Assembly (NCBI RefSeq): GCF_000091665.1
Contig: NC_000909.1
Span: forward strand, 628,485-652,484
Direction of reading: 5' to 3'
DNA: 24,000 nt
DNA from: Methanocaldococcus jannaschii DSM 2661
Lineage (GTDB): Archaea > AGJL01 > Methanococci > Methanococcales > Methanocaldococcaceae
The notes beneath the pieces were generated by a model. The model was not told the origin of the DNA, did no database searches, and was given only the letters and a program-made list of their open reading frames with translations. Below, piece after piece: positions 2,584-19,868 of this stretch. Each line of letters starts with the position of its first letter. Position 1 is the first letter of the stretch. The position numbers were made by a program, and so were the translations under genes.

Positions 2584-3717
2584 ATGTTTGCATTTGAAGG
2601 TTTTAAATGGGAAATTGTTGAAATATTTGATTGGAAAGGGCTTAAAAAATTGCAAACAACTTTTCAAAACTATCTTCTCATTCTCTCTATGATTGTGTCT
2701 ATAGCAGTGGTTGTTGCAATAAAAAATTATGATTCATTATGGTCTTTAATAACCAATAGCAGTGACAGCAGTAATTTCCTTACAGTAGGGAGTATTTTAG
2801 CAACTATCTCAGCACTACTTGTATCAATATCTTGGGTTATTATTCAGACATCATCAGATAGATTAAGTAATATCTTAATGTGGATATGGGTTAGAGATGT
2901 AAGATTTTTAACTTTTGTAGTAATTTCTTTCACAACTGTGTTTTTATTTATTCTTATTTCATTAACACATGTTCAATTGCATGTAATTGACTATGGAATT
3001 ATTTATTACGTTATAATGTTAAATTTCTTAATGTATGCTTTATATATAAAAGCATTTGCAAATGTTATAAATCCAAAATATGCAGTCGATTTAATTTTGA
3101 GAGATAAAGATATAGGAGATAAATCAGGAGGCTATGGTGATTTAACTGATGCTGAATCGAGATTATTCGCAGTCTATGAAATTATTGAGAAGAGAATTAA
3201 AGTGGGAGATGTTTATGCAGTAATAAAATGCTTAAATATGATTAACAAAAACTTTAATAAATACTGGATGTTTATTAAAGATGAAAAACGTGAAAAATAT
3301 CTTAGGGATTTTTTAAGAATTCTTAGTAAATTAAGAGTTGAATATAGAAAAAATTGTTTAAATAGGAAAAATAAGCCATACTCTAAAAAAGGTTTGGAAG
3401 CTTTTAAGAAAACAGAATTTATAGTTTCATTTTACAAAACTATCGAAGAAAAAATTAAAACAAGAGACATTAATAGTATTAATAAATTTTTAAGTGAAAC
3501 ATACAACAACATTAGCAATTATGAGATGTTCAACGATAAAACATACCTTGAAATATTTGTGCATCATTTAAAAGAATTATTAGAGAAATATGAAAAAGAA
3601 AAGAATGAGAATAAGTTAGATGAAGAGATATTCAACGAACTAAAAGATGAACTCGAAAAACTAATTAATAAATGCAATAATAAACTAAGAGAACTTGAAT
3701 CACAAAATAACAACTAA
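2584..3717 (+). CDS. hypothetical protein: N-terminal multi-TM domain plus K/E/N-rich helical C-terminal half
   Basis: 377-aa ORF. About 5 hydrophobic helices in the first 170 aa, then a charged, probably coiled-coil region. No family recognised. Confidence 0.6.
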   Translation: MFAFEGFKWEIVEIFDWKGLKKLQTTFQNYLLILSMIVSIAVVVAIKNYDSLWSLITNSSDSSNFLTVGSILATISALLVSISWVIIQTSSDRLSNILMWIWVRDVRFLTFVVISFTTVFLFILISLTHVQLHVIDYGIIYYVIMLNFLMYALYIKAFANVINPKYAVDLILRDKDIGDKSGGYGDLTDAESRLFAVYEIIEKRIKVGDVYAVIKCLNMINKNFNKYWMFIKDEKREKYLRDFLRILSKLRVEYRKNCLNRKNKPYSKKGLEAFKKTEFIVSFYKTIEEKIKTRDINSINKFLSETYNNISNYEMFNDKTYLEIFVHHLKELLEKYEKEKNENKLDEEIFNELKDELEKLINKCNNKLRELESQNNN

Positions 3718-3734
3718 ACTAATCTGGTGATAAA

Positions 3735-4952
3735 ATGGAAAATTATAATGACATCCTTGAAAAAATGTTAAATGGAGAAATAAAGCCATATCAATTAGAT
3801 AAAATGTTTGGTTCAAAAATAGCAACTGAAATTAGAAGAAAATTTATTGAAAAAAAGGTTGGGATTGAATTTAAGCATATATGCAATTACTCAATAGATG
3901 AAGAAATGGCTATGAAGAAGAATATAGAAAATATGATTGGAGCTATACAGATTCCATTGGGTTTTGCTGGGCCTTTAAAGATAAATGGGGAATATGCAAA
4001 GGGAGAGTTTTACATCCCATTGGCAACAACTGAAGGAGCTTTGGTGGCATCGGTTAATAGGGGTTGCTCAATAATAACAAAATGTGGGGGGGCAACTGTT
4101 AGGGTTATAGATGATAAGATGACAAGAGCCCCTTGCTTAAAAACAAAGAGTGTTGTAGATGCAATAAAAGTCAGAGATTGGATTAGAGAAAACTTTGAGA
4201 GGATAAAGGAAGTTGCTGAATCAACAACAAGGCATGGAAAGCTAATAAAGATAGAGCCAATTTTAATCGTTGGAAGAAATCTATATCCAAGATTTGTATT
4301 TAAAACTGGAGATGCCATGGGCATGAATATGGTTACAATTGCAACAGAGAAGGCATGTAATTTTATAGAGGGGGAATTAAAAAAAGAAGGCATATTTGTT
4401 AAAACAGTTGCTGTCAGTGGAAATGCATGTGTAGATAAAAAGCCTAGTGGAATGAACTTAATTAATGGTAGAGGGAAATCTATTGTAGCAGAGGTATTTT
4501 TAACTGAGAAGGAAGTTAATAAATACCTAAAAACCACTTCCCAAGCTATAGCTGAAGTAAATAGGTTAAAGAATTATATAGGTTCAGCAATAAGCAATTC
4601 AATGGGATTCAATGCCCATTATGCAAATATCATTGGGGCAATATTCTTAGCTACTGGGCAAGATGAGGCACATATAGTTGAGGGTAGTTTAGGAATTACA
4701 ATGGCTGAAGTTGAAGATGATGGATTATATTTTTCAGTAACTCTCCCAGATGTTCCTATTGGGACTGTTGGAGGAGGAACAAGGGTTGAAACACAAAAAG
4801 AGTGCTTAGAGATGCTTGGTTGCTACGGAGATAATAAAGCTTTAAAATTTGCTGAAATTGTTGGAGCTGCAGTTTTAGCTGGGGAGTTATCTTTATTAGG
4901 AGCTTTAGCAGCTGGACATTTAGGAAAAGCTCATCAAGAACTCGGTAGATAA
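3735..4952 (+). CDS. hmgA: 3-hydroxy-3-methylglutaryl-CoA reductase (class I)
   Basis: 405 aa with motifs EGALVAS, DAMGMNM and GTVGGGT, plus the C-terminal GHL(G)KAH catalytic His region. GGTGAT RBS precedes the ATG. Confidence 0.95.
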   Translation: MENYNDILEKMLNGEIKPYQLDKMFGSKIATEIRRKFIEKKVGIEFKHICNYSIDEEMAMKKNIENMIGAIQIPLGFAGPLKINGEYAKGEFYIPLATTEGALVASVNRGCSIITKCGGATVRVIDDKMTRAPCLKTKSVVDAIKVRDWIRENFERIKEVAESTTRHGKLIKIEPILIVGRNLYPRFVFKTGDAMGMNMVTIATEKACNFIEGELKKEGIFVKTVAVSGNACVDKKPSGMNLINGRGKSIVAEVFLTEKEVNKYLKTTSQAIAEVNRLKNYIGSAISNSMGFNAHYANIIGAIFLATGQDEAHIVEGSLGITMAEVEDDGLYFSVTLPDVPIGTVGGGTRVETQKECLEMLGCYGDNKALKFAEIVGAAVLAGELSLLGALAAGHLGKAHQELGR

Positions 4953-4954
4953 TT

Positions 4955-5599
4955 ATGAGAGATGCTTATTTAATGATGGTGCTAATGGACGCATTGAAAG
5001 AGATATTTGATTTAAAAGAAATTCTAAAAAGCCCTATAAGAAATAAGAAAGTTATTTTATTTGTTAGTTTGGTTTTTATCTTATCTTTAGTATTATTATA
5101 TATTTTGGTAGTTAATATAAAGTATTTCTCATATTTAGGAGATATCATCTTCCAAAATTTTCAAAAACATGTTGAAAATCTAAAAATTACGTTAAATGAG
5201 GATAACTTACATATAATATTAGCAATTTGGAAAAATAACCTAACCGTATGTATTTTAAACTATATCCTTGGGATTTTTTCACTATTTGTTATTGCAGTTA
5301 ATTCCTATATCTTATCATACGTGCTTTACAAATTTGGTGCTGAAAGCTTTATCTATTTAGTTTTACCACATGGAATCATTGAAATTCCAGCTTTAATACT
5401 TTCAGCATCAGGTGGGGTTTTATTTAACATGGGATTAGTTAATTTCTTAATAAATATCAAATTTGGAACTAAAAGAGAGGTTTTATATTACATAAAAGAG
5501 TCTTTAAAGTTGCTCATACTCTCTATAATACTATTCATAGTTGCTGGAATTGTTGAAGGGACTATAACCTTTAAAATAGCCAAAATCATGTTTTCTTAA
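4955..5599 (+). CDS. SpoIIM/DUF95-family integral membrane protein
   Basis: 214 aa, multi-TM, with the LPHGIIEIPALILSASGG signature typical of the stage II sporulation protein M-like family. Confidence 0.7.
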   Translation: MRDAYLMMVLMDALKEIFDLKEILKSPIRNKKVILFVSLVFILSLVLLYILVVNIKYFSYLGDIIFQNFQKHVENLKITLNEDNLHIILAIWKNNLTVCILNYILGIFSLFVIAVNSYILSYVLYKFGAESFIYLVLPHGIIEIPALILSASGGVLFNMGLVNFLINIKFGTKREVLYYIKESLKLLILSIILFIVAGIVEGTITFKIAKIMFS

Positions 5600-5787: not shown

Positions 5788-5936
5788 TCTCTCACCTACA
5801 GATTTTTAATAAACATATTAAAACTTTTTAAAACTTTTTATATGTTTTTATGTTTTTTGACAGATTTAAATTTTAGTTATATATTTTACTTTTGGAACTT
5901 TAGATGCCCTTTAGGCAGCAATAATCAATAGAATAT

Positions 5937-6446
5937 TTATTTCCTGAGAAAGTCCTGCTGAATTTCCACAACTTCCATTGAATTTTTAGCATTTGAGTAT
6001 CTTTCTAATAATTCATAATTAACCTTTATAAATGTTTCTGCCCATTTAAAACAGGAGGTTAAATCCCAAGCTTCATCCTTAAAGTTAGTTATATATAAAG
6101 CGGCAATAAAAGCTTCCAATGTTGAAAGCATGCATGGCTTTCCATAATTTATAGGGTTGCATGCAACTAAAAACGGTAGAGACCTTTGATTTTTAAATTT
6201 AAATTTCTTAAACATTAACTCCGCTTCTTTCCATGAACAATCTAAAGCAGTTATTCCAAACTTTTCCACTATCTCTTTATCTTCTGGAGATAGAGCTTTT
6301 TCAGCGTAAGGATTCAGTATTAAAGAGTTTTTTGGAACTTTATAAGGATTTTTTAACAAAATGGCTTTATTCATCTTAGCCATTTTTAAGGATGTGCATT
6401 TTTTTGGATTGCACTGATTTGCATGATATATGAAAAGCTTCGGCAT
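5937..6446 (-). CDS. tsr3: 16S rRNA aminocarboxypropyltransferase Tsr3 (DUF367)
   Basis: The ORF 5937..6455 start is a GTG. The ATG at 6446 (MPKLFIYH...) follows a GTGA RBS. N-terminal CNPKKCT RLI-type motif and LDCSW motif are characteristic of Tsr3. Confidence 0.85.
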   Translation of the reverse strand: MPKLFIYHANQCNPKKCTSLKMAKMNKAILLKNPYKVPKNSLILNPYAEKALSPEDKEIVEKFGITALDCSWKEAELMFKKFKFKNQRSLPFLVACNPINYGKPCMLSTLEAFIAALYITNFKDEAWDLTSCFKWAETFIKVNYELLERYSNAKNSMEVVEIQQDFLRK

Positions 6447-6530
6447 TGTTATCACAATTTTGTGAAATGGTAAAGAAAATTAAGTTGTATAAGTAGTATT
6501 TATTTTTTACTGTTATTGTGGTGATAGACG

Positions 6531-7883
6531 ATGAAAAATGTTGAAATATTGTTGGATGACCCAAAAAAAGCAGTAATTGAAGTATCAAAGCCAATAATTG
6601 TTGCTACATTCATTGAATCAATCTATAGCTTAGTTGATAGTATCTGGGTTTCTGGATTGGGGGCAGATGCATTAGCTGCTGTGGGAGCGAGTTTTCCAAT
6701 ATTAATTAGCATATATGCAGTTAGTTGGGGTTTGAGTATTGGGATTAGCTCTGGAATAGCAAGAAGAGTTGGAGCAAAAAATAAAGAAGAAGCTGATAAA
6801 GTAGCAAATCATGCAATTATTTTAGCTTTAATTGCTGGAATTTTGTATATTATAGCTGTATATCCAAATCTTGATACGCTATTTAGCTTAATGGGAACCT
6901 ATGGAGATTGTAAGTCATTAGCTATAAAATACTCCAGCATACTGGTTTTAGGAACTGTTATATTTACAATCTGCGATGCGTTATATGGGATATTTAGGGG
7001 GGAGGGAAATACAAAGATAGTTATGATAGCAAGCGTTATAGGCACTTTAACAAACATCATCTTAGACCCGATATTCATCTATATGCTAAATTTAGGGATA
7101 AGTGGGGCAAGTTATGCTACTTTGATAGCTATAATTATATCTCTCTTAATTTTAGCTTATGAGCTGTTTATAAAAAAATCATGTTATGTTACAGTTAAAT
7201 TATCAAAATTTAAACCTGATTTAAAGATTATAGCCGATTTAATTAGAGTTGGAATTCCTTCAGCATTGATAGAGATTACTGTTGCAGTATCATTTTTTAT
7301 AATGACTTCAATAATTATGATGGTTGGAGATAGTAGAGGTTTAGCTGTCTATACTGGAGCTTTAAGAATAACAGAGTTTGGCTTTATTCCAATGTTAGGT
7401 TTGGCAAGTGGAGCTACTTCAGTTATAGGAGCCACTTACGGAGCAAGGAGTTTTGAAAAATTAAAAACAGCTTATTTTTACACAATAAAAATTGGGGTTT
7501 TAATGGAAATTATTATAGTTGCTTTAATAATGCTCTTATCCCCAATCTTAGCTTATCTATTTACTTACACAAAAACCTCAATGGGAATTCATGAAGAACT
7601 TGTTAAAGCTTTAAGAATAGTTCCATTATATTTACTATTTACACCATTTATTTTAACAACATCCGCAATGTTCCAAGGAATTGGTAAAGGAGAAAAATCA
7701 TTAATAATTTCCATATTTAGGTCGCTAATATGTCATATATCCTATGCTTATCTATTTGCAGTAATATTGGGATTAGGAATGTTTGGAATATATAGCGGCT
7801 TAGTGGTTGGAGAATTTACAGCTGGAATTTTTGCATTTCTATTTGGAGTTTTAGCTATAAAAGCATTAATAAAATCTAAATAA
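6531..7883 (+). CDS. MATE-family efflux transporter
   Basis: 450 aa, about 12 TM helices with duplicated 6-TM architecture. GGTGAT RBS before the ATG. Confidence 0.85.
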
Positions 7884-7909: not shown

Positions 7910-8965
7910 ATGATTGGATATGTTTTAAATGGAGAGCATGAAGAAATCCCTTATGGAGAACTTATGGCATTATTAGAAATTTTTAATTACAATGGAAGTG
8001 TTGAGAGATTAAAAAGATACGTTATAACTGAAGATAGTCCTGCCAAAGATATCGTTAAAAGAAGTGGGTATATAGATGAGGGGCATAGGATAATATTTAG
8101 ATACAATTTAGAAGAAAAAAGTGTAGATTTAGTAGATAAAATTGTCAATGATTTTATAAACTCATTTAAAGATTTTGTAGCAAATATTGATTATCCAGAT
8201 ATTGATGAGAGTAAATCTTATGCCGTTAGAGTTTTAAAACTTCATAAAGATGAATTTACAAAATCTATAGACTCATTAAGAATTGAGAAGGAAATTGGAG
8301 GGATTATAAAATTAAAAACCAATGCAAAAGTAAATTTAACAAAACCAGATATATTAGTTAGAGTTGTTATTTTAGAAAACACATTTTTTATTTCCAATGT
8401 ATTAGAGATGAGAGATAGGGAATACTTCCAAAAGAATAGGCCACATTTAAGAAAATACTTCCATCCGGGTTGTATGCTTCCAAAACTTGCAAGAGCTATG
8501 GTAAATCTAGCAAGAGTTAAAGAAGGAGATATTGTCTTAGACCCATTCTGTGGGACTGGAGGGTTTTTAATTGAGGCTGGTTTAATCGGAGCTAAGCTTA
8601 TTGGTTGTGATATAGATTGGAGAATGGCTTCTGGAACTTTAATCAACCTTGAAGAATACAACCTATTAGATAAAGTGATAAAAGTTAAAAGATTAGATGC
8701 CAAATACGTAAAAGAGTTTTTAAATGAACTAAATATAGAAAAAGTCGATGCCATTGTAACAGACCCGCCTTATGGAATATCTACAGCAAAAAAGGGAGAG
8801 ATTGAAAAGATATTAGAAACTCTTCCAGAGGTCATTAAAGATAACGGCTACTTTGTTTTTGCATACCCAAAAAAGATAGAGCTTGATATGGAATTAGAGG
8901 GACTCTACAAGGTATATATCCATAAAGGGCTGATTAGACACATCCATGTTTATAAGAAAATCTAA
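7910..8965 (+). CDS. THUMP-domain tRNA (guanine-N2)-methyltransferase (Trm-G10/Trm11 family)
   Basis: 351 aa. N-terminal THUMP-like region, then SAM motif I VLDPFCGTGGFLIEA and catalytic DPPYG. Confidence 0.85.
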   Translation: MIGYVLNGEHEEIPYGELMALLEIFNYNGSVERLKRYVITEDSPAKDIVKRSGYIDEGHRIIFRYNLEEKSVDLVDKIVNDFINSFKDFVANIDYPDIDESKSYAVRVLKLHKDEFTKSIDSLRIEKEIGGIIKLKTNAKVNLTKPDILVRVVILENTFFISNVLEMRDREYFQKNRPHLRKYFHPGCMLPKLARAMVNLARVKEGDIVLDPFCGTGGFLIEAGLIGAKLIGCDIDWRMASGTLINLEEYNLLDKVIKVKRLDAKYVKEFLNELNIEKVDAIVTDPPYGISTAKKGEIEKILETLPEVIKDNGYFVFAYPKKIELDMELEGLYKVYIHKGLIRHIHVYKKI

Positions 8966-9053
8966 TATTATTACATTTACTAAAAATATTTATGAAAATT
9001 TATGAAAAATTAATTAAATTGTAAGTCAAATATTTAAATACCTAACCGAAAAG

Positions 9054-9061
9054 TTTATATA
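9054..9061 (+). promoter_or_regulatory. TATA box (TTTATATA) with purine-rich BRE-like CGAAAAG upstream; candidate promoter of the tRNA cluster
   Basis: Matches the consensus methanogen box A. tRNA-Phe begins 38 nt downstream of the box, so a short leader is expected. Confidence 0.6.
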
Positions 9062-9098
9062 CCTGAAATGTAATGCATAATTATGCAAACATTTGGGT

Positions 9099-9175
9099 GC
9101 CGCGGTAGTTCAGCCTGGGAGAACGCTGGACTGAAGATCCAGTTGTCGGGTGTTCAAATCACCCCCGCGGCACCA
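9099..9175 (+). tRNA. tRNA-Phe (GAA), CCA encoded
   Basis: Acceptor GCCGCGG/CCGCGGC. Anticodon stem CTGGA/TCCAG with loop CTGAAGA. T-arm GGGTG-TTCAAAT-CACCC. Confidence 0.95.
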
Positions 9176-9182
9176 TTGATGT

Positions 9183-9258
9183 GCCCCCATAGCTCAGATG
9201 GTAGAGCGACGGACTGTTAATCCGTAGGTCGCAGGTTCGAGTCCTGCTGGGGGCGCCA
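9183..9258 (+). tRNA. tRNA-Asn (GTT), CCA encoded
   Basis: Acceptor GCCCCCA/TGGGGGC. Anticodon loop CTGTTAA. T-loop GGTTCGAGTCC. Confidence 0.95.
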
Positions 9259-9287
9259 TTAATTTTTTATTTTTTTATACCCAATAT

Positions 9288-9365
9288 GGGCCCGTAGCTC
9301 AGCCTGGTCAGAGCGCTCGGCTCATAACCGAGTGGTCAAGGGTTCAAATCCCTTCGGGCCCACCA
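9288..9365 (+). tRNA. tRNA with CAT anticodon (elongator Met or Ile2), CCA encoded
   Basis: Acceptor GGGCCCG/CGGGCCC (G1:C72, so not an initiator). Anticodon loop CTCATAA. Met and agmatidine-modified Ile2 cannot be told apart by eye. Confidence 0.9.
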
Positions 9366-9383
9366 TATTAAAATCACTAATTA

Positions 9384-9458
9384 GCTCCGGTGGTGTAGTC
9401 CGGCCAATCATGCGGGCCTTTCGAGCCCGCGACCCGGGTTCAAATCCCGGCCGGAGCA
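9384..9458 (+). tRNA. tRNA-Glu (TTC), no encoded CCA
   Basis: Acceptor GCTCCGG/CCGGAGC. Anticodon stem CGGGC/GCCCG with loop CTTTCGA. Confidence 0.93.
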
Positions 9459-9497
9459 TCATTCGTCCTATTTTAAGATAATTAAGAATATATATGT

Positions 9498-9585
9498 GCA
9501 GGGGTCGCCAAGCCTGGCCAAAGGCGCTGGGCCTAGGACCCAGTCCCGTAGGGGTTCCAGGGTTCAAATCCCTGCCCCTGCACCA
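9498..9585 (+). tRNA. tRNA-Leu (TAG), long variable arm, CCA encoded
   Basis: Acceptor GCAGGGG/CCCCTGC. Anticodon loop CCTAGGA. 88 nt with a class II variable arm. Confidence 0.93.
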
Positions 9586-9595
9586 TAGGTAAAGT

Positions 9596-9668
9596 GGCCG
9601 GGGTGGGGTAGTGGCCATCCTGGGGGACTGTGGATCCCCTGACCCGGGTTCAATTCCCGGTCCCGGCC
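9596..9668 (+). tRNA. tRNA-His (GTG) with encoded G-1
   Basis: Extra 5' G before acceptor GCCGGGG. Anticodon stem GGGGA/TCCCC with loop CTGTGGA. Discriminator C. Confidence 0.9.
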
Positions 9669-9669
9669 C

Positions 9670-9738: not shown

Positions 9739-9859
9739 GGATGCACTTGAAATAGGGCTTACGCGGGTAAGTTTCCTATTGGAATAAATGATGCCCTTTA
9801 GGGCTTCAAAATTCCAAATTCAATAAAATAATGCGTAAGCCCTATTTAAGGATGCGTCC
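9739..9859 (+). repeat. nested-hairpin repeat element, copy 2 (upstream of the 16S leader)
   Basis: Perfect 15-bp inverted repeat AAATAGGGCTTACGC (9750-9764) / GCGTAAGCCCTATTT (9833-9847), imperfectly extendable to 9739/9859. 68-nt AT-rich loop with inner hairpin GATGCCC-TTTA-GGGCTTC. Shares TGATGCCCTTT and AAATTCCA anchors with copy 4. Confidence 0.7.
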
Positions 9860-9879
9860 CCAATCCGAAGGGTTGGGGC

Positions 9880-9923
9880 TGAGGCAAGCCCACGACTGGT
9901 GGTGAAACCCCGCAGCAACCAGC
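9880..9923 (+). other. 16S processing stem, 5' strand
   Basis: Complementary to 11458-11500 as 20-bp and 16-bp helices separated by an internal loop. This is the expected site of a bulge-helix-bulge endonuclease substrate. Confidence 0.85.
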
Positions 9924-9967: not shown

Positions 9968-11446
<1,479 letters not shown>

Positions 11447-11510: not shown

Positions 11511-11583
11511 GGGCCCGTAGCTCAGCTGGGAGAGCGCCGGCCTTGCAAGCCGGAGGCCGTGGGTTCAAATCCCACCGGGTCCA
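11511..11583 (+). tRNA. tRNA-Ala (TGC) in the 16S-23S spacer, no encoded CCA
   Basis: Acceptor GGGCCCG/CGGGTCC gives the G3:U70 alanine identity pair. Anticodon loop CTTGCAA. Confidence 0.95.
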
Positions 11584-11632
11584 CTATATATGCAGCCTGC
11601 AACTCCAAAGAGTTGCAGGTGAAGGGCCTGAT

Positions 11633-11724
11633 ACGGGACTTTCGCAGGAAATAATTTTTATTTGGTAATTGATGCTTTCAGCATCTCACTACCTTATAAA
11701 TATTACAAACTGCGAAAGTCCCGT
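11633..11724 (+). repeat. nested-hairpin repeat element, copy 3 (between tRNA-Ala and the 23S processing stem)
   Basis: Perfect 15-bp inverted repeat ACGGGACTTTCGCAG (11633-11647) / CTGCGAAAGTCCCGT (11710-11724). 62-nt AT-rich loop with a T-run (11655-11663), inner hairpin GATGC-TTTCA-GCATC (11671-11685) and TATA-like TTATAAATATT (11694-11704). Confidence 0.75.
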
Positions 11725-11734
11725 AAAAACATGA

Positions 11735-11770: not shown

Positions 11771-14786
<3,016 letters not shown>

Positions 14787-14846: not shown

Positions 14847-14965
14847 GGTACGGCGGTCATAGCGGGGGGGCCACACCCGAACCCATCCCGAACTCGGAAG
14901 TTAAGCCCCCCAGCGATGCCCCGAGTACTGCCATCTGGCGGGAAAGGGGCGACACCGCCGGCCAC
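14847..14965 (+). rRNA. rrf: 5S rRNA
   Basis: GGTACGGCGGTCATAGCGGGGGGGCCACACCCGAACCCATCCCGAACTCGGAAGTTAAGCCC... with terminal helix to ...ACCGCCGGCCAC. About 119 nt. Ends approximate. Confidence 0.92.
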
Positions 14966-15015: not shown

Positions 15016-15281
15016 GCGGGTAAGGGGGCTGGTGACTTTCCCCTCTTTAAGAGGGGAGGAAGTTCCGCCCACCCCATTTATGGGCAGCGTCCCCTGAGAA
15101 GGGGCGGGAGATGCAGCAGAAACGACACGGCTCCGGAAGAGATGACGATGATAGTGAAAGTTGAGGACTTCCGGAGAACCGGTGAAACGGGCATCTCCCC
15201 TGCCCGGGGTGCAAGCCGGTTTCGGCGCTTAGCCGAATGTCACCGAAATTACAGAAGGCGGGCTATAGCCCCCATACCCGC
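15016..15281 (+). ncRNA. rnpB: RNase P RNA (archaeal, Methanococcales-like reduced type)
   Basis: P1 pairs GCGGGTAAGGGGG (15016-15028) with CCCCCATACCCGC (15269-15281). CR-I-like GAGGAAGTTCCGCC and CR-V-like ACAGAAGGCGGGCTATA form P4. GC-rich island in AT-rich DNA. Followed by T6 at 15286-15291. Confidence 0.9.
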
Positions 15282-15291: not shown

Positions 15292-15293
15292 AT

Positions 15294-15383
15294 AGAATTT
15301 TCGCAGTTTTATATTAACTTCGTGGAATTTAGATGCTCAAAGGGCATCAATTTTCTCTAAAATTTTATTCCTGCAAAAGTTCT
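15294..15383 (-). repeat. nested-hairpin repeat element, copy 4 (inverted orientation, downstream of RNase P RNA)
   Basis: 13-bp outer stem AGAATTTTCGCAG (15294-15306) / CTGCAAAAGTTCT (15371-15383) with 1 mismatch and 1 wobble. 64-nt loop. Its reverse complement aligns with copy 3 (TTGATGC..TTT.AGCATCT, flanking GCAG|GAATAA and AAA|CTGCGAAA) and with copy 2 (TGATGCCCTTT, AAATTCCA). Confidence 0.7.
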
Positions 15384-15509
15384 ATATTTTTTTAATTATT
15401 AATCAATGAACTTAAATTAATAAATATAAATTATTTTATCTAAATTAAAGGTTTTTATATATCAAAAAGTAAAATTAAATTTAAAAAAGAGATTAAAAAT
15501 TGGGAGAAA

Positions 15510-16478
15510 ATGGATAGTGTTCTAAGTGGTAAGATTGTTCAAATACTTGTGGGGTATTTAAAAGAAAATATCTATTCTGAACAAATGATAAAACTTAGGA
15601 TGAAGAGAATTTGTAGCTATGAGGAGTTTTTACCAACATACTCTTTAATAGAAAGGATTACTGAAGAAAGTAAAGAGATAGCAATAAAAGTATATGAAAA
15701 GAACATTATCGTAGAGATTGTTAAAGATTTTAAAAATAAGGATTTAATAGAACTATTTGAACTTAAAGAAGAGCTATTTGATGAAGCTTTAAGCTATTTA
15801 AAAAAATATAATGCAGATAAATTCTTAGAGAGCTACACTTTATACTGCTTTAGTGAGTATTCAGACCCTGACTCATTTATCAAGGAAAATAAGAGTATAT
15901 TAACAAAACTTCTTAGAAATCAGTATGAAGAAGTTCCAGAGGAATATATAAATGAATTATTAAAAAGCAAAATAAAGTATTCAACAAAAGATTTAATAAT
16001 TTTGGATTGGGATAATGGAATAATCTTAGATAAAAATGAAGATTTCTGGGAAGAAGTTGATATTATCGAACTTGCCTGTATTAGAGTTTTGAATTTAAGA
16101 GTATTTGACAGTATGCTAAGTGAAGCAATACAATATTTCACAAGATTACAGTGGGAAAAACTTGGATATTTTAAGCTAAAAAAACTATCTAAGGATTTAT
16201 ATCTACAAAGAATCAGCTATATATCATATTTTGATAGCATTGAAAATGTCCTTATGTTGTATGGAGACAGATATTATGCTGAGTTGTATGAAAGATTATG
16301 TAAAATATTCTACGTCTCAGAATGGATTAAAAGAGTAGAGAAAAAAATGGAAATGATTAGTGATATATACACAATGACAAGGCAACATTTAACTGAGTTT
16401 TATGGATTATTGTTGGAAGGAACAATTGTTGCTTTAATACTATTGGAGATAATTTTAGCTTTAGCAAAGATTGTTTAA
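15510..16478 (+). CDS. hypothetical protein, probably RMD1/DUF155 family, with a single C-terminal TM helix
   Basis: 322 aa. The C-terminal pattern (helical region, then [22 protein letters not shown]) and overall layout resemble DUF155. Family assignment is from memory of the profile only. Confidence 0.5.
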
Positions 16479-17597: not shown

Positions 17598-19868
17598 ATA
17601 TCCATTTTTTAAGATATAGGCAACACCTTGCCCAAAACTAATTCCCCCATCTCCATTAGGAACTCTTTGATGATAAATAAAATTAAAACCCTCCCTTTTT
17701 GCATTATTCATAATTCTTTCAGTTATTATTTTGTTATATGAGACTCCTCCAGTAATGCCTATAGTATTTATTCCAAATTTATTCGATATTTTCTTAGCAA
17801 TCTCAAATAATCCATCTGCTATATAAATATGGGCAAAATGTGCTATTTTTTCTTTATTTTCGTTATTTAATAGCATCTCATAAGATTTGTAAATAAGTTC
17901 TGTAGTATTTAAGATGTTATTTTTTATTTTTGGCTCTATATTAATATCTCCTTTAAACCTATTTGCCACTGGCTCTAATCTTATACTCGGCTCTCCATCG
18001 TAAGTTTTTTCAAAGCAAATTCCTAATAAAGCTGAAACAGCATCTAAAACTCTACCAGTGGATGTAGTTATTGGACAGTTAAGTTTTTTCTCAAGTTGGA
18101 ATTTTAATAATCTAAGTTCTTTTTCTGAGAAGAAATTATATCTTTTTATAAAATCAAATGCCTCCTCACCAATGGCTTTATATAATATAGAAAGTAGCAT
18201 CCTCAAAGGATACTTAGTTGCTAAGTCCCCTCCTAACTGATACTGTTCCTCCAAATGCCCTACTCTCTCCATCTTGCCATCTTTAAATAACAAAACCTCC
18301 CCTCCCCAAATATTCCCATCCAATCCATAACCTACCCCATCCAACGACAAAATTATTGCATCATCGAAATAGTTGTTGTCCCCTAATAAGCTATAAGCAT
18401 GTGCAAAATGATGCTGAACTCTAAAAATCTCAGCCCCAAATTTTTCTGATAATTCCTCAGCTAATTTTGTTGAATTAAACTGAGGATGCAAGTCACAAAC
18501 AATAGCATCAATTTTATTTGTGTTTGTTAATCTTAAAATGTTGTTTATCGCATCTCTTAGATAGCAGAATGTCTCATACTTTGAGGTATTTCCTATATAC
18601 TGGGTTAGATAAAACTTATCTCTCTTTACAATACAAGCGGTTGAGTTTAGCTCAGCCCCAACACATAGGATATTTTTATTATTGTTTATATTAACCTTTA
18701 CAGGCTCTGGAGCAAATCCCCTTGACCTCCTTAAAAAAACTAATCTATCAGCTACCTTTTTAACAACACTGTCATCACATCTATTCACTATCCTTCTATT
18801 ATGCAATAAGAAGTAGTCAGCAATACCGTTAAGTTTTTTTAATATCTCATCATTATCCTTAACCATTGGTAATCCTGGCAGATTAGCAGAGGTCATAACA
18901 TAAGCAATCTCTTTATCAAATAAGAGATAATGCAACCCACTGTATGGAAACATAACTCCAATAGTGTCTAAATTAGAAACATACTTTGAAAAATATTTAT
19001 CATAATCTTGGCTCTTTTTTAAAACAACTATTGGTCTTCTTAAAGATAACAAAGCATTTTTTTCATCTTCGTCAAATTCAGCAAACAGCTCTGTATATTC
19101 TATTTTACTCATTACTGCAAATGGTTGAGTTGGTCTTCCCAATCTCTTCCTTAATTCTAAAACTACATCATCCTCTCCTACTTTACAAGCTAAGTGAGTC
19201 CCTCCAATTCCTTTTATAGCTAATATATGACCCTCTTCCAATAATTTAACTGTTTCTCTAATTGCTTCATCTTTTTCAGCTATAATCTCTTTTCCATCAC
19301 TCAAAAATACCTTAGGACCGCAAATTGGGCAACAAGTGGCTTGAGCATGAAATCTCCTATCTAAAGGATTTTTATATTCCTCCAAGCACTTTTCACATAA
19401 AGGAAAATCTCTCATTGATGTATTTTCTCTATCATAGGGAAGTTTTTCAACTATTGTAAATCTCGGCCCACAATTTGTGCATGCAATAAATGGGTATCTG
19501 TATCTCCTATCATTTTTATCAAGCATTTCTTTTAAGCAGTCGTCACATATTGCTACATCAGCTGGTATAGTGCCTTCTTCCTCATCTTTAGCGTTTTCAC
19601 TCTTTATAATATAGAAGTCATCAAATTCTTCAATTCCTTTAATTTCCTCAATATCCAATTTATCAATTCTTGACAATGGCGGTTTCTTATTTTTTAAATC
19701 ATTGATAAAATTTCTTATATCCTCTTTTTTTCCTTCAATAAGAATTTCCACATAATTCCCCATGTTTTTTACATAGCCCTTTAAATTATTTTTTTTAGCT
19801 ATTCTATAAACAAAAGGTCTAAACCCTACACCTTGAACTATACCTTTAACTTTAATTCTTACCTTCAT
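17595..19868 (-). CDS. hypF: [NiFe]-hydrogenase maturation carbamoyltransferase HypF
   Basis: Acylphosphatase domain (VKGIVQGVGFRPFVYRIA), two CxxC-x18-CxxC zinc fingers (CDDC..CTNCGPRF, CEKC..CPICGP), and YrdC-like and Kae1-like domains. Start probably MKVRIKV at 19868 rather than 19895. Confidence 0.93.
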   Translation of the reverse strand: MKVRIKVKGIVQGVGFRPFVYRIAKKNNLKGYVKNMGNYVEILIEGKKEDIRNFINDLKNKKPPLSRIDKLDIEEIKGIEEFDDFYIIKSENAKDEEEGTIPADVAICDDCLKEMLDKNDRRYRYPFIACTNCGPRFTIVEKLPYDRENTSMRDFPLCEKCLEEYKNPLDRRFHAQATCCPICGPKVFLSDGKEIIAEKDEAIRETVKLLEEGHILAIKGIGGTHLACKVGEDDVVLELRKRLGRPTQPFAVMSKIEYTELFAEFDEDEKNALLSLRRPIVVLKKSQDYDKYFSKYVSNLDTIGVMFPYSGLHYLLFDKEIAYVMTSANLPGLPMVKDNDEILKKLNGIADYFLLHNRRIVNRCDDSVVKKVADRLVFLRRSRGFAPEPVKVNINNNKNILCVGAELNSTACIVKRDKFYLTQYIGNTSKYETFCYLRDAINNILRLTNTNKIDAIVCDLHPQFNSTKLAEELSEKFGAEIFRVQHHFAHAYSLLGDNNYFDDAIILSLDGVGYGLDGNIWGGEVLLFKDGKMERVGHLEEQYQLGGDLATKYPLRMLLSILYKAIGEEAFDFIKRYNFFSEKELRLLKFQLEKKLNCPITTSTGRVLDAVSALLGICFEKTYDGEPSIRLEPVANRFKGDINIEPKIKNNILNTTELIYKSYEMLLNNENKEKIAHFAHIYIADGLFEIAKKISNKFGINTIGITGGVSYNKIITERIMNNAKREGFNFIYHQRVPNGDGGISFGQGVAYILKNGY

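Follow-up and report, generated by a model that had tools for sequence, protein, structure and literature searches.

One ribosomal RNA (rRNA) operon of Methanocaldococcus jannaschii DSM 2661 carries in its spacers several A+T-rich palindromes whose arms differ in sequence from copy to copy while staying largely complementary. Do these structures serve rRNA expression, or are they mobile repeats that the operon tolerates? We examined this question in a stretch of 24,000 nucleotides of the chromosome (NC_000909.1, positions 628,485 to 652,484; hereafter the window, whose numbering is used below). A preliminary description of the palindrome upstream of the 16S leader had proposed an rRNA promoter or regulatory cassette, a processing or terminator structure, or a small repeat resembling miniature inverted-repeat transposable elements (MITEs). 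The evidence favours the last of these options, since sites without the element, dispersed copies and nested copies all occur. Most likely, the elements are MITE-type, non-coding palindromic repeats of ~95–100 bp that inserted into the spacers of this one M. jannaschii rRNA operon.

The window contains three such elements (c1, c2 and c3), each ~95–100 bp long and composed of 13–16-bp terminal inverted repeats (TIRs) around a central hairpin. The first (c1; 9750..9847, + strand) is a 98-nt block (AAATAGGGCTTACGC...GCGTAAGCCCTATTT) in the spacer that runs from tRNA-His to the 16S leader. Its left TIR (9750..9764, + strand; variant TAGGGCTTACGC) forms a perfect 15-bp inverted repeat with the right TIR (9833..9847, + strand), the arms being 100% complementary and 68 nt apart, exactly as first described. 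The central hairpin, GATGCCC-TTTA-GGGCTTC (9790..9807, + strand; arms 9790-9796 and 9801-9807), has a T.T mismatch at its third pair. The second element (c2; 11632..11725, + strand; TACGGGACTTTCGCAG...CTGCGAAAGTCCCGTA) occupies 94 nt of the spacer between tRNA-Ala and 23S, 10 nt upstream of the 23S processing stem. Its perfect 16-bp stem (11632-11647/11710-11725) encloses a 62-nt loop with the central hairpin GATGCT-TTC-AGCATC (11671..11685, + strand). The third (c3; 15293..15384; TAGAATTTTCGCAG...CTGCAAAAGTTCTA) is inverted (− strand) and lies in the T-run directly after the RNase P RNA, with TA on either flank; its central hairpin (GATGC...GCATC) spans 15332..15348 (− strand), and its 13–14-bp stem is imperfect, with one G:T and one C:A. 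The three copies thus share the proposed layout at the proposed places, with slightly revised ends for c2 and c3. The notion that each outer stem stays self-complementary applies fully to c1 and c2 and is a slight overstatement for c3, and the inner hairpins are present and paired apart from the one mismatch in c1. The elements are 92–100 nt long, A+T-rich and without an open reading frame (ORF) of their own, and c1, c2 and c3 align with 73–76% column identity. A covariance model built from these three (R1) found only c1, c2 and c3 as strong matches in the window (c1 scored 93 bits, and 77 bits with an improved model, R2), plus one weak match at ~5866-5958 that corresponds to a decayed copy, c4.

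The syntenic loci of six relatives (M. fervens, M. vulcanius, the metagenome-assembled genome L130, sp. 16A, M. bathoardescens and FS406-22), retrieved via homologues of MJ0711 and MJ0710, show the same operon without the elements. The gene order tRNA cluster-16S-tRNAAla-23S-5S-RNase P-MJ0711 is common to all six, and none has an element at the c1, c2 or c3 site. In alignments, every M. jannaschii copy appears as a clean insertion of 92–98 nt within conserved surrounding sequence. At the c1 site, the element is missing from M. fervens, M. vulcanius, sp. 16A and M. bathoardescens, and the edge of the missing block is sharp (CACTTG^AAGGATGCG). For sp. 16A and M. bathoardescens the empty c2 site reads GGGCCTGA^AAAACATG and the empty c3 site ATTTTTTA^TTTTTT; both sites are likewise empty in M. 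fervens, M. vulcanius and L130. FS406-22 was judged empty by the lengths of its spacers (199, 101 and 139 nt for c1, c2 and c3, respectively) and by the lack of any covariance-model match. Correspondingly, the three spacers measure 299, 193 and 233 nt in M. jannaschii versus ~200, 100 and 123–143 nt in the four relatives whose spacers are free of other insertions. Because the rRNA operons of six relatives lack c1–c3, the elements are not necessary promoter, processing or terminator signals; as far as comparative sequence data can tell, the roles in rRNA expression that had been proposed for c1 are excluded as necessary functions. The same roles are also opposed by the occurrence of the family at unrelated intergenic sites, in either orientation.

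Indeed, the covariance-model search that the preliminary description had recommended recovered independent copies in other Methanocaldococcus genomes and in metagenomes, with E values of 1e-10 to 1e-18. The family has 13–17-bp TIRs with the consensus TAGGACTTTCGCAGGAA (also written as (A/T)ATAGGACTTTCGCAGGAA ... AAACTGCGAAAGTCCTAT), a right-end consensus TAATATATAAACTGCGAAAGTCCTAT, a central hairpin of the form GATGCC-N3-4-GGCATC with co-varying versions, and an A+T-rich asymmetric interior. Four copies are present in the 24-kb window, which covers M. jannaschii in this analysis, and ~20 in spp. 16A, 10A and 28A, M. bathoardescens and metagenomes. A genome-wide scan with a loose pattern mostly listed chance matches in unrelated bacteria, but among the matches listed were at least three loci of sp. 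16A, with at least four intact copies plus partial ones. The synteny loci of spp. 10A, 28A and 16A and of M. bathoardescens contained further copies, and a tighter metagenome scan added six more on vent-type contigs. The copies lie between ordinary protein genes, beside a tRNA and at the 3′ ends of genes, in both orientations; none of those examined was inside a gene and in frame. Family density is unequal between genomes, since ~100 kb from M. fervens, M. vulcanius, L130 and FS406-22 searched with R2 held no intact copy and a single degenerate remnant, in FS406-22. Viral contigs gave 74 chance matches to the 15-mer TIR, with no element among them, and the plasmid collection gave no family match.

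Several loci carry signs of mobility. The RNase P-MJ0711 spacer of sp. 16A has acquired an independent copy at another position, flanked by TTTAA on both sides, and TTTAA occurs once in the matching empty sites of M. jannaschii and M. bathoardescens. Copies are also nested: a copy of this family in sp. 16A (locus L008, 2486-2690) is split by a third, related type of palindromic repeat (TIR ACAGTCTGAATGCAT, 2531-2628) with TA on each flank, and another region of the same locus (7600-7770) has a copy within another copy. Comparisons of filled and empty sites gave duplications of TA (2 nt) for c3, TTTAA (5 nt) for the sp. 16A copy, none or 1 nt for c2 and an imperfect TTGAA/TTTAA for c1. The bases added at insertions are always A/T and mostly lengthen the palindrome. 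A target duplication of TA alone would account for c3 and for the copy nested in L008, but was rejected as a general rule because the empty c2 site, CCTGAAAAAC, has no TA. The cofE site of sp. 10A could not serve as another filled/empty pair, as the upstream region in FS406-22 is rearranged and cannot be aligned.

These patterns are consistent with repeats that would be mobilized in trans by an enzyme and would insert at A/T-rich spots of non-coding DNA. Around this one operon, three insertions have very probably taken place, in the 5′ spacer, in the 16S-23S spacer and in the T-run after the RNase P RNA. The copies probably persist because the sequence around them is discarded during maturation or is not part of a mature RNA, and because a self-contained hairpin leaves neighbouring folds undisturbed. 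Matched changes in the arms would then reflect a palindromic design at the DNA level, required by propagation, together with descent from variant source copies; they are no indication of a function in rRNA expression.

The palindromes themselves are well supported as structures. An alternative reading would make each of them a small structured RNA with a gene of its own. Folded as RNA, the elements are far more stable than shuffled sequences (z = −8.8 for c1, −10.8 for c2 and −5.5 for c3), and the same is true of DNA folding (z = −6.9, −10.9 and −4.0, respectively). In a set of 13 copies, 95.7% of the outer stem is paired, and 6 of its 16 pairs show double changes; for the central hairpin, the corresponding figures are 92.3% and all 6 pairs. 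None of 500 shuffles matched the observed values, and slid controls reached 30–41% pairing. The covariation is therefore genuine and far above controls, as anticipated by the earlier claim that pairing is kept beyond shared ancestry, without thereby establishing a function as RNA. Stem mismatches are balanced, with six G:T on the element strand and six A:C (the equivalent of G.U on the opposite strand). This absence of strand bias, together with the presence of copies in both orientations, argues for symmetry at the DNA level rather than a strand-specific RNA. The mismatch pattern fits a constraint on a DNA palindrome or TIR, with the terminal repeats recognized symmetrically or the element acting as a single-stranded DNA hairpin. 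Also opposed to an RNA gene are the random orientation of the copies relative to their neighbours and their low G+C content (27–36%) compared with the G+C-rich structured RNAs of this hyperthermophile. Rfam 15 contributed nothing at the gathering score and, even at permissive thresholds, only generic miRNA-precursor hairpins of 12–23 bits against cut-offs of 53–140 bits. Despite the strong predicted hairpins and their covariation, we thus regard a stand-alone RNA gene as very improbable.

Several observations weigh against a mobile repeat of the MITE type. Transposase-driven MITEs of the canonical kind produce duplications of one length. In the family described here no duplication of fixed length is apparent, and the excess over the TAG...CTA core is 2 nt for c3, 4 for c2, 6 for c1 and 5 for the sp. 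16A copy. Nor did we find an autonomous element with the family TIR in ~330 kb of Methanocaldococcus DNA, and in the loci examined no pair of family TIRs flanks an ORF. The remaining points come from a metagenome contig (L139; OFAY01001198) with a 16S gene 98.9% identical to that of M. jannaschii. This contig has orthologues of c1 and c2 at exactly matching sites and with the same site-specific TIR variants. The TIRs of c1 and c2 are identical between M. jannaschii and L139 at 63 of 63 positions, whereas the interiors match at 43 of 61 and 38 of 60 positions (63–70%), with indels, a contrast not expected of plain junk DNA. Furthermore, M. fervens, which has neither element, is by 16S no more distant from M. 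jannaschii than L139, so that the history of the two insertions needs loss by precise excision or unresolved branching.

An insertion sequence (IS) of ~1.1 kb in sp. 10A (L214, 8415-9501), encoding DDE_Tnp_1 and DUF772 proteins, adjoins the repeats associated with cofE. Its TIR is GAGTTTGGWCAWAAAG, and the target duplication that flanks it is perfect over 9 bp (CGATTTTAC). We rejected it as the mobilizing partner of the family, its TIR being unrelated and its duplication 9 bp long.

The conservation between M. jannaschii and L139 points to a further possibility, in which c1 and c2 are domesticated structures of the pre-rRNA. Their stems would now be under selection, and stem closing would hold the flanking segments together or avoid mispairing with the rRNA. 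Invariant TIRs next to divergent interiors, and next to an unconstrained upstream leader with 39 of 50 identical positions, are what such selection would leave. The central hairpins also differ by paired changes: L139 has GGTGCCT-TGA-AGGCACC in c1 and GATGCC-TTT-GGCATC in c2, the latter with a double change from T-A to C-G. Location supports the idea as well. A small hairpin of the host (GGATGC...GCGTCC), itself conserved, has c1 in its loop, so the flanks of c1 pair only when the element folds. The 5′ half of this hairpin, GGATGCACTTG (9739..9749, + strand), pairs with the 3′ half, AAGGATGCGTCC (9848..9859, + strand), in the minimum free energy fold; both belong to the host leader, outside the element, and in relatives the two halves adjoin as GGATGCACTTGAAGGATGCGTCC. 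In addition, c3 and c4, which lie outside the operon transcript, have TIRs that are decaying. However, each copy offers a single orthologous pair, six relatives live without the elements, the transcription of c1 is presumed, and hairpin-templated repair or continued competence for mobilization could also conserve the stems. The comparison suggests that closure of the c1 and c2 stems, which are probably co-transcribed with the pre-rRNA, may be under selection in this one pair of lineages; domestication as a pre-rRNA structure nevertheless seems rather unlikely to us. Slightly broader, and still unlikely, is co-option in the clade of M. jannaschii and L139 with stems held invariant, either as pre-rRNA clamps or with c1 supplying or repositioning an rRNA promoter. 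If true, a mobile palindrome would have rewired how an archaeal rRNA operon is expressed or folded and, in the case of a promoter, c1 would serve lineages that lack the TATA box present after tRNA-His in M. fervens.

The promoter hypothesis can be compared with known signals. The TATA consensus of M. jannaschii is TWTATATA, with a start box 23 ± 2 nt downstream (PMC2699501), and ATGC is the start-site box in stable-RNA genes of Methanococcus. The preliminary description had noted a weak TATA-like AATAAAATAA near the end of the c1 loop, and weak it is, matching TWTATATA at only 4–5 of 8 positions. This A/T box (9822-9831) is ~24 nt before a conserved host ATGC (9851-9854), a spacing that agrees with the rule (PMC2699501), so that c1 could be, or add to, the rRNA operon promoter. 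Consistent with this, the right interior of c1 is the part of its interior best conserved in L139, the family consensus TAATATATAA adjoins the right TIR, and the interval from tRNA-His to 16S in M. jannaschii has no other TATA matching at 7 or more of 8 positions. M. fervens, which lacks c1, has TTTATATC right after tRNA-His. Yet even at the right spacing the c1 box falls short of a Methanococcales stable-RNA promoter, which combines a transcription factor B recognition element (BRE), TTTATATA and ATGC. The relatives keep the ATGC and have no TATA at the needed distance, and therefore the ATGC is probably not a start site. Among the family contexts, the right end points towards a gene start in only ~4 of 9, and we rejected a general "portable promoter" (TAATATATAA beside the right TIR) on account of this lack of orientation bias.

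A perfect, conserved promoter (9054-9086) is in fact already available upstream of the six-tRNA cluster (9099-9669). Preceding tRNA-Phe at 9045-9086 are a BRE (CCGAAAAG), the TATA box TTTATATA (9054-9061) and a T-G-C (9084-9086) with 23-nt spacing, all unchanged in M. fervens and M. vulcanius. A contribution of c1 to transcription is thus possible but unlikely, and we consider it distinctly improbable that c1 is, or adds to, the promoter of the rRNA operon. That no comparable promoter is visible before 16S invites the separate question of a transcript common to the tRNA cluster and the rRNA operon.

The positions of c2 and c3 could also be read as signals, with c2 guiding cleavage of the spacer and c3 ending the operon after the RNase P RNA. 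In M. maripaludis the 16S-tRNAAla-23S-5S-rnpB operon is a single transcript, from which the spacers are removed after EndA cleavage at the bulge-helix-bulge motifs of the processing stems (PMC10515664). The corresponding genes of the window are 16S (9968-11446), tRNA-Ala (11511-11584), 23S (11777-14780), 5S (14849-14963) and RNase P RNA (15020-15277). In support of such roles, c2 is only 10 nt before the 23S processing stem, the c3 hairpin is within the T-run right after rnpB, and rnpB belongs to the rRNA transcript in M. maripaludis (PMC10515664). Against them, the 23S stem (11735-11787/14770-14822) and the flanks that form the 16S stem are separate from the elements and conserved without them, the T-run is intact in relatives that lack c3, and c3 has the opposite orientation to c1 and c2. 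Moreover, the elements pair only with themselves; they have none of the long-range pairing of the 16S and 23S flanks and do not match a bulge-helix-bulge processing stem. Processing or termination signals are accordingly among the least probable explanations of the copies. For intra-operon copies in general, we allow a small chance of an acquired structural or promoter role.

Insertions of the family have also reached the ends of genes. The decayed copy c4 (5857..5960, − strand; 15 bits with R1, 29.5 bits and E = 4e-5 with R2) lies in a convergent intergenic region. It retains its left TIR (CAGGACTTTCTCAGGAA, a one-mismatch match) and has lost the right one. The final codons and stop (...QQDFLRK*) of the ORF at 5937..6455 (− strand) come from this left TIR. 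An orthologue of c4 in M. bathoardescens (L217, 7942-8040) is better preserved, at 56 bits. A family TIR likewise terminates an ORF (2933..4912) in L026, where the copy spans 4889-4986. The 3′ end of the Fer4_RLI/Ribo_biogen_C gene (window 5937-5960) resembles the family TIR in all species, even those without an element, and sp. 28A has a repeat of a second type at the matching spot. This 3′ end is either a very old insertion recruited as coding sequence or a hot spot for insertion. A weak model match at 7488-7585 and its M. fervens counterpart, inside a MatE gene, were dismissed as chance (fold z-score −0.8).

The second palindromic type just mentioned is ~110 bp long, with the TIR TAGCTTTGTGCAAAAGTAT and a central hairpin of its own, and twice directly adjoins copies of the first family, a further sign of mobility. 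We found it in L214 (9757-9867), L095 (2064-2174), L026 (from 7095) and L219 (4365-4478 and 7878-7991). In sp. 10A, two copies of the main family (L218, 16698-16794 and 19284-19380) are inverted around a TrkH gene and identical, including 30 nt of flank on each side; they are a segmental inverted duplication, not two insertions. The MJ0711 homologue of sp. 16A (L216, 17414-18381) is split into ORFs of 281 and 43 amino acids by an apparent frameshift, and half a repeat copy lies just 3′ of it (18355-18412). Behind the orthologous copies in metagenomes lies a G+C-rich stretch, GCCTCTCGGGTCCCTTTCGG (L131, ~1370-1400; L137, ~2229-2260), that matches no Rfam family at the cut-off and might be an unannotated small RNA.

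The locus as a whole runs from MJ0710 through the tRNA cluster, 16S, tRNA-Ala, 23S, 5S and RNase P RNA to MJ0711; the ORFs at 7910-8965 and 15510-16478 are identical to MJ0710 (tRNA G10 methyltransferase) and MJ0711 of M. jannaschii DSM 2661. Directly upstream of the 16S processing stem is a conserved leader hairpin, CCCCAATCC-GAAG-GGTTGGGG (9858-9880), whose M. vulcanius version (CCCAATCC/GGATTGGG) differs by paired changes. From tRNA-His to the 16S leader, M. vulcanius also has an unrelated block of ~125 nt (L129, ~4414-4540) with two good TATA boxes (TTTATATC and TTTATATA); the block is absent from the other species. In sp. 10A, an integrase-MCM-TnpB block (L218, 11838-15188) follows the tRNA cluster in place of the rRNA operon found there in other species, which suggests that an element integrated, or a rearrangement occurred, at the tRNA-His end. 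One metagenome contig (L121, 2890-3215) is chimeric, with a foreign G+C-rich RNase P RNA fused via its conserved 3′ end to the c3-MJ0711 region of M. jannaschii.

For annotation, the hairpins of this operon should be labelled as repeat elements; labels such as rRNA promoter, processing signal or new RNA gene should be avoided. Interpreted as MITE-type repeats, they indicate that three selfish insertions can be tolerated in the spacers of an operon that is both essential and highly expressed. The family also departs from the textbook MITE, since its target duplication has no fixed length, no transposase partner is visible and its central hairpin co-varies, and the availability of several complete Methanocaldococcus genomes with filled and empty sites makes the mechanism of mobilization addressable.

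Known families of short palindromes provide a context for these features. MITEs such as Sulfolobus SM1-4, the Neisseria Correia elements and pneumococcal RUP (reviewed in PMC2229807) are, like the family described here, small, non-coding and A+T-rich, with TIRs and often TA at their ends. They likewise occur as many dispersed copies with insertion polymorphism and nesting, and form long hairpins when transcribed. The insertion of repeats into RNA genes has also been reported (PMC2229807). The M. jannaschii family has the canonical MITE traits of size, lack of coding capacity, TIRs, dispersed copies and filled and empty sites with sharp edges. Unlike MITEs, it shows neither a single duplication length nor an autonomous partner in the DNA covered here, and MITEs do not in general have a conserved central hairpin that co-varies. 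Rickettsia palindromic elements (RPE) are also palindromes of ~100 bp tolerated in functional transcripts and at gene ends, but they differ in sequence, belong to another domain of life and typically lie in frame inside proteins, whereas the copies described here are mainly intergenic. Repetitive extragenic palindromic sequences and bacterial interspersed mosaic elements (REP/BIME), with their REP-associated tyrosine transposases (RAYT), and palindrome-associated transposable elements (PATEs) derived from IS200/IS605 are likewise short hairpin-forming repeats, thought to act as single-stranded DNA. They are, however, short imperfect palindromes or have sub-terminal hairpins, without long TIRs, and no linked RAYT or TnpA gene was seen in the loci examined here.

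The closest parallel comes from M. jannaschii itself. Suyama, Lathe & Bork (FEBS Lett 2005; 579:5281) reportedly described three groups of palindromic repeats in this organism, MJRE1-3, which are said to comprise 141 elements and 14.3 kb (~101 bp each). These are reported to be palindromic, ~100 bp long and mostly extragenic, as is the family described here. Three sequence groups are matched by three TIR types in the relatives, and an occasional overlap with coding sequence may be matched by c4 and the L026 copy, which supply the final codons and stop of genes. The family (TAGGACTTTCGCAGG) is thus very probably the MJRE of 2005 and hence already known, to judge by the likeness in host, size, layout and location. 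The statement in the preliminary description that the element belongs to no recognized, named family is, on the same likeness, probably wrong. What may go beyond the MJRE paper are the empty-site comparisons with relatives sequenced later and the contrast between stem and loop conservation in the rRNA operon.

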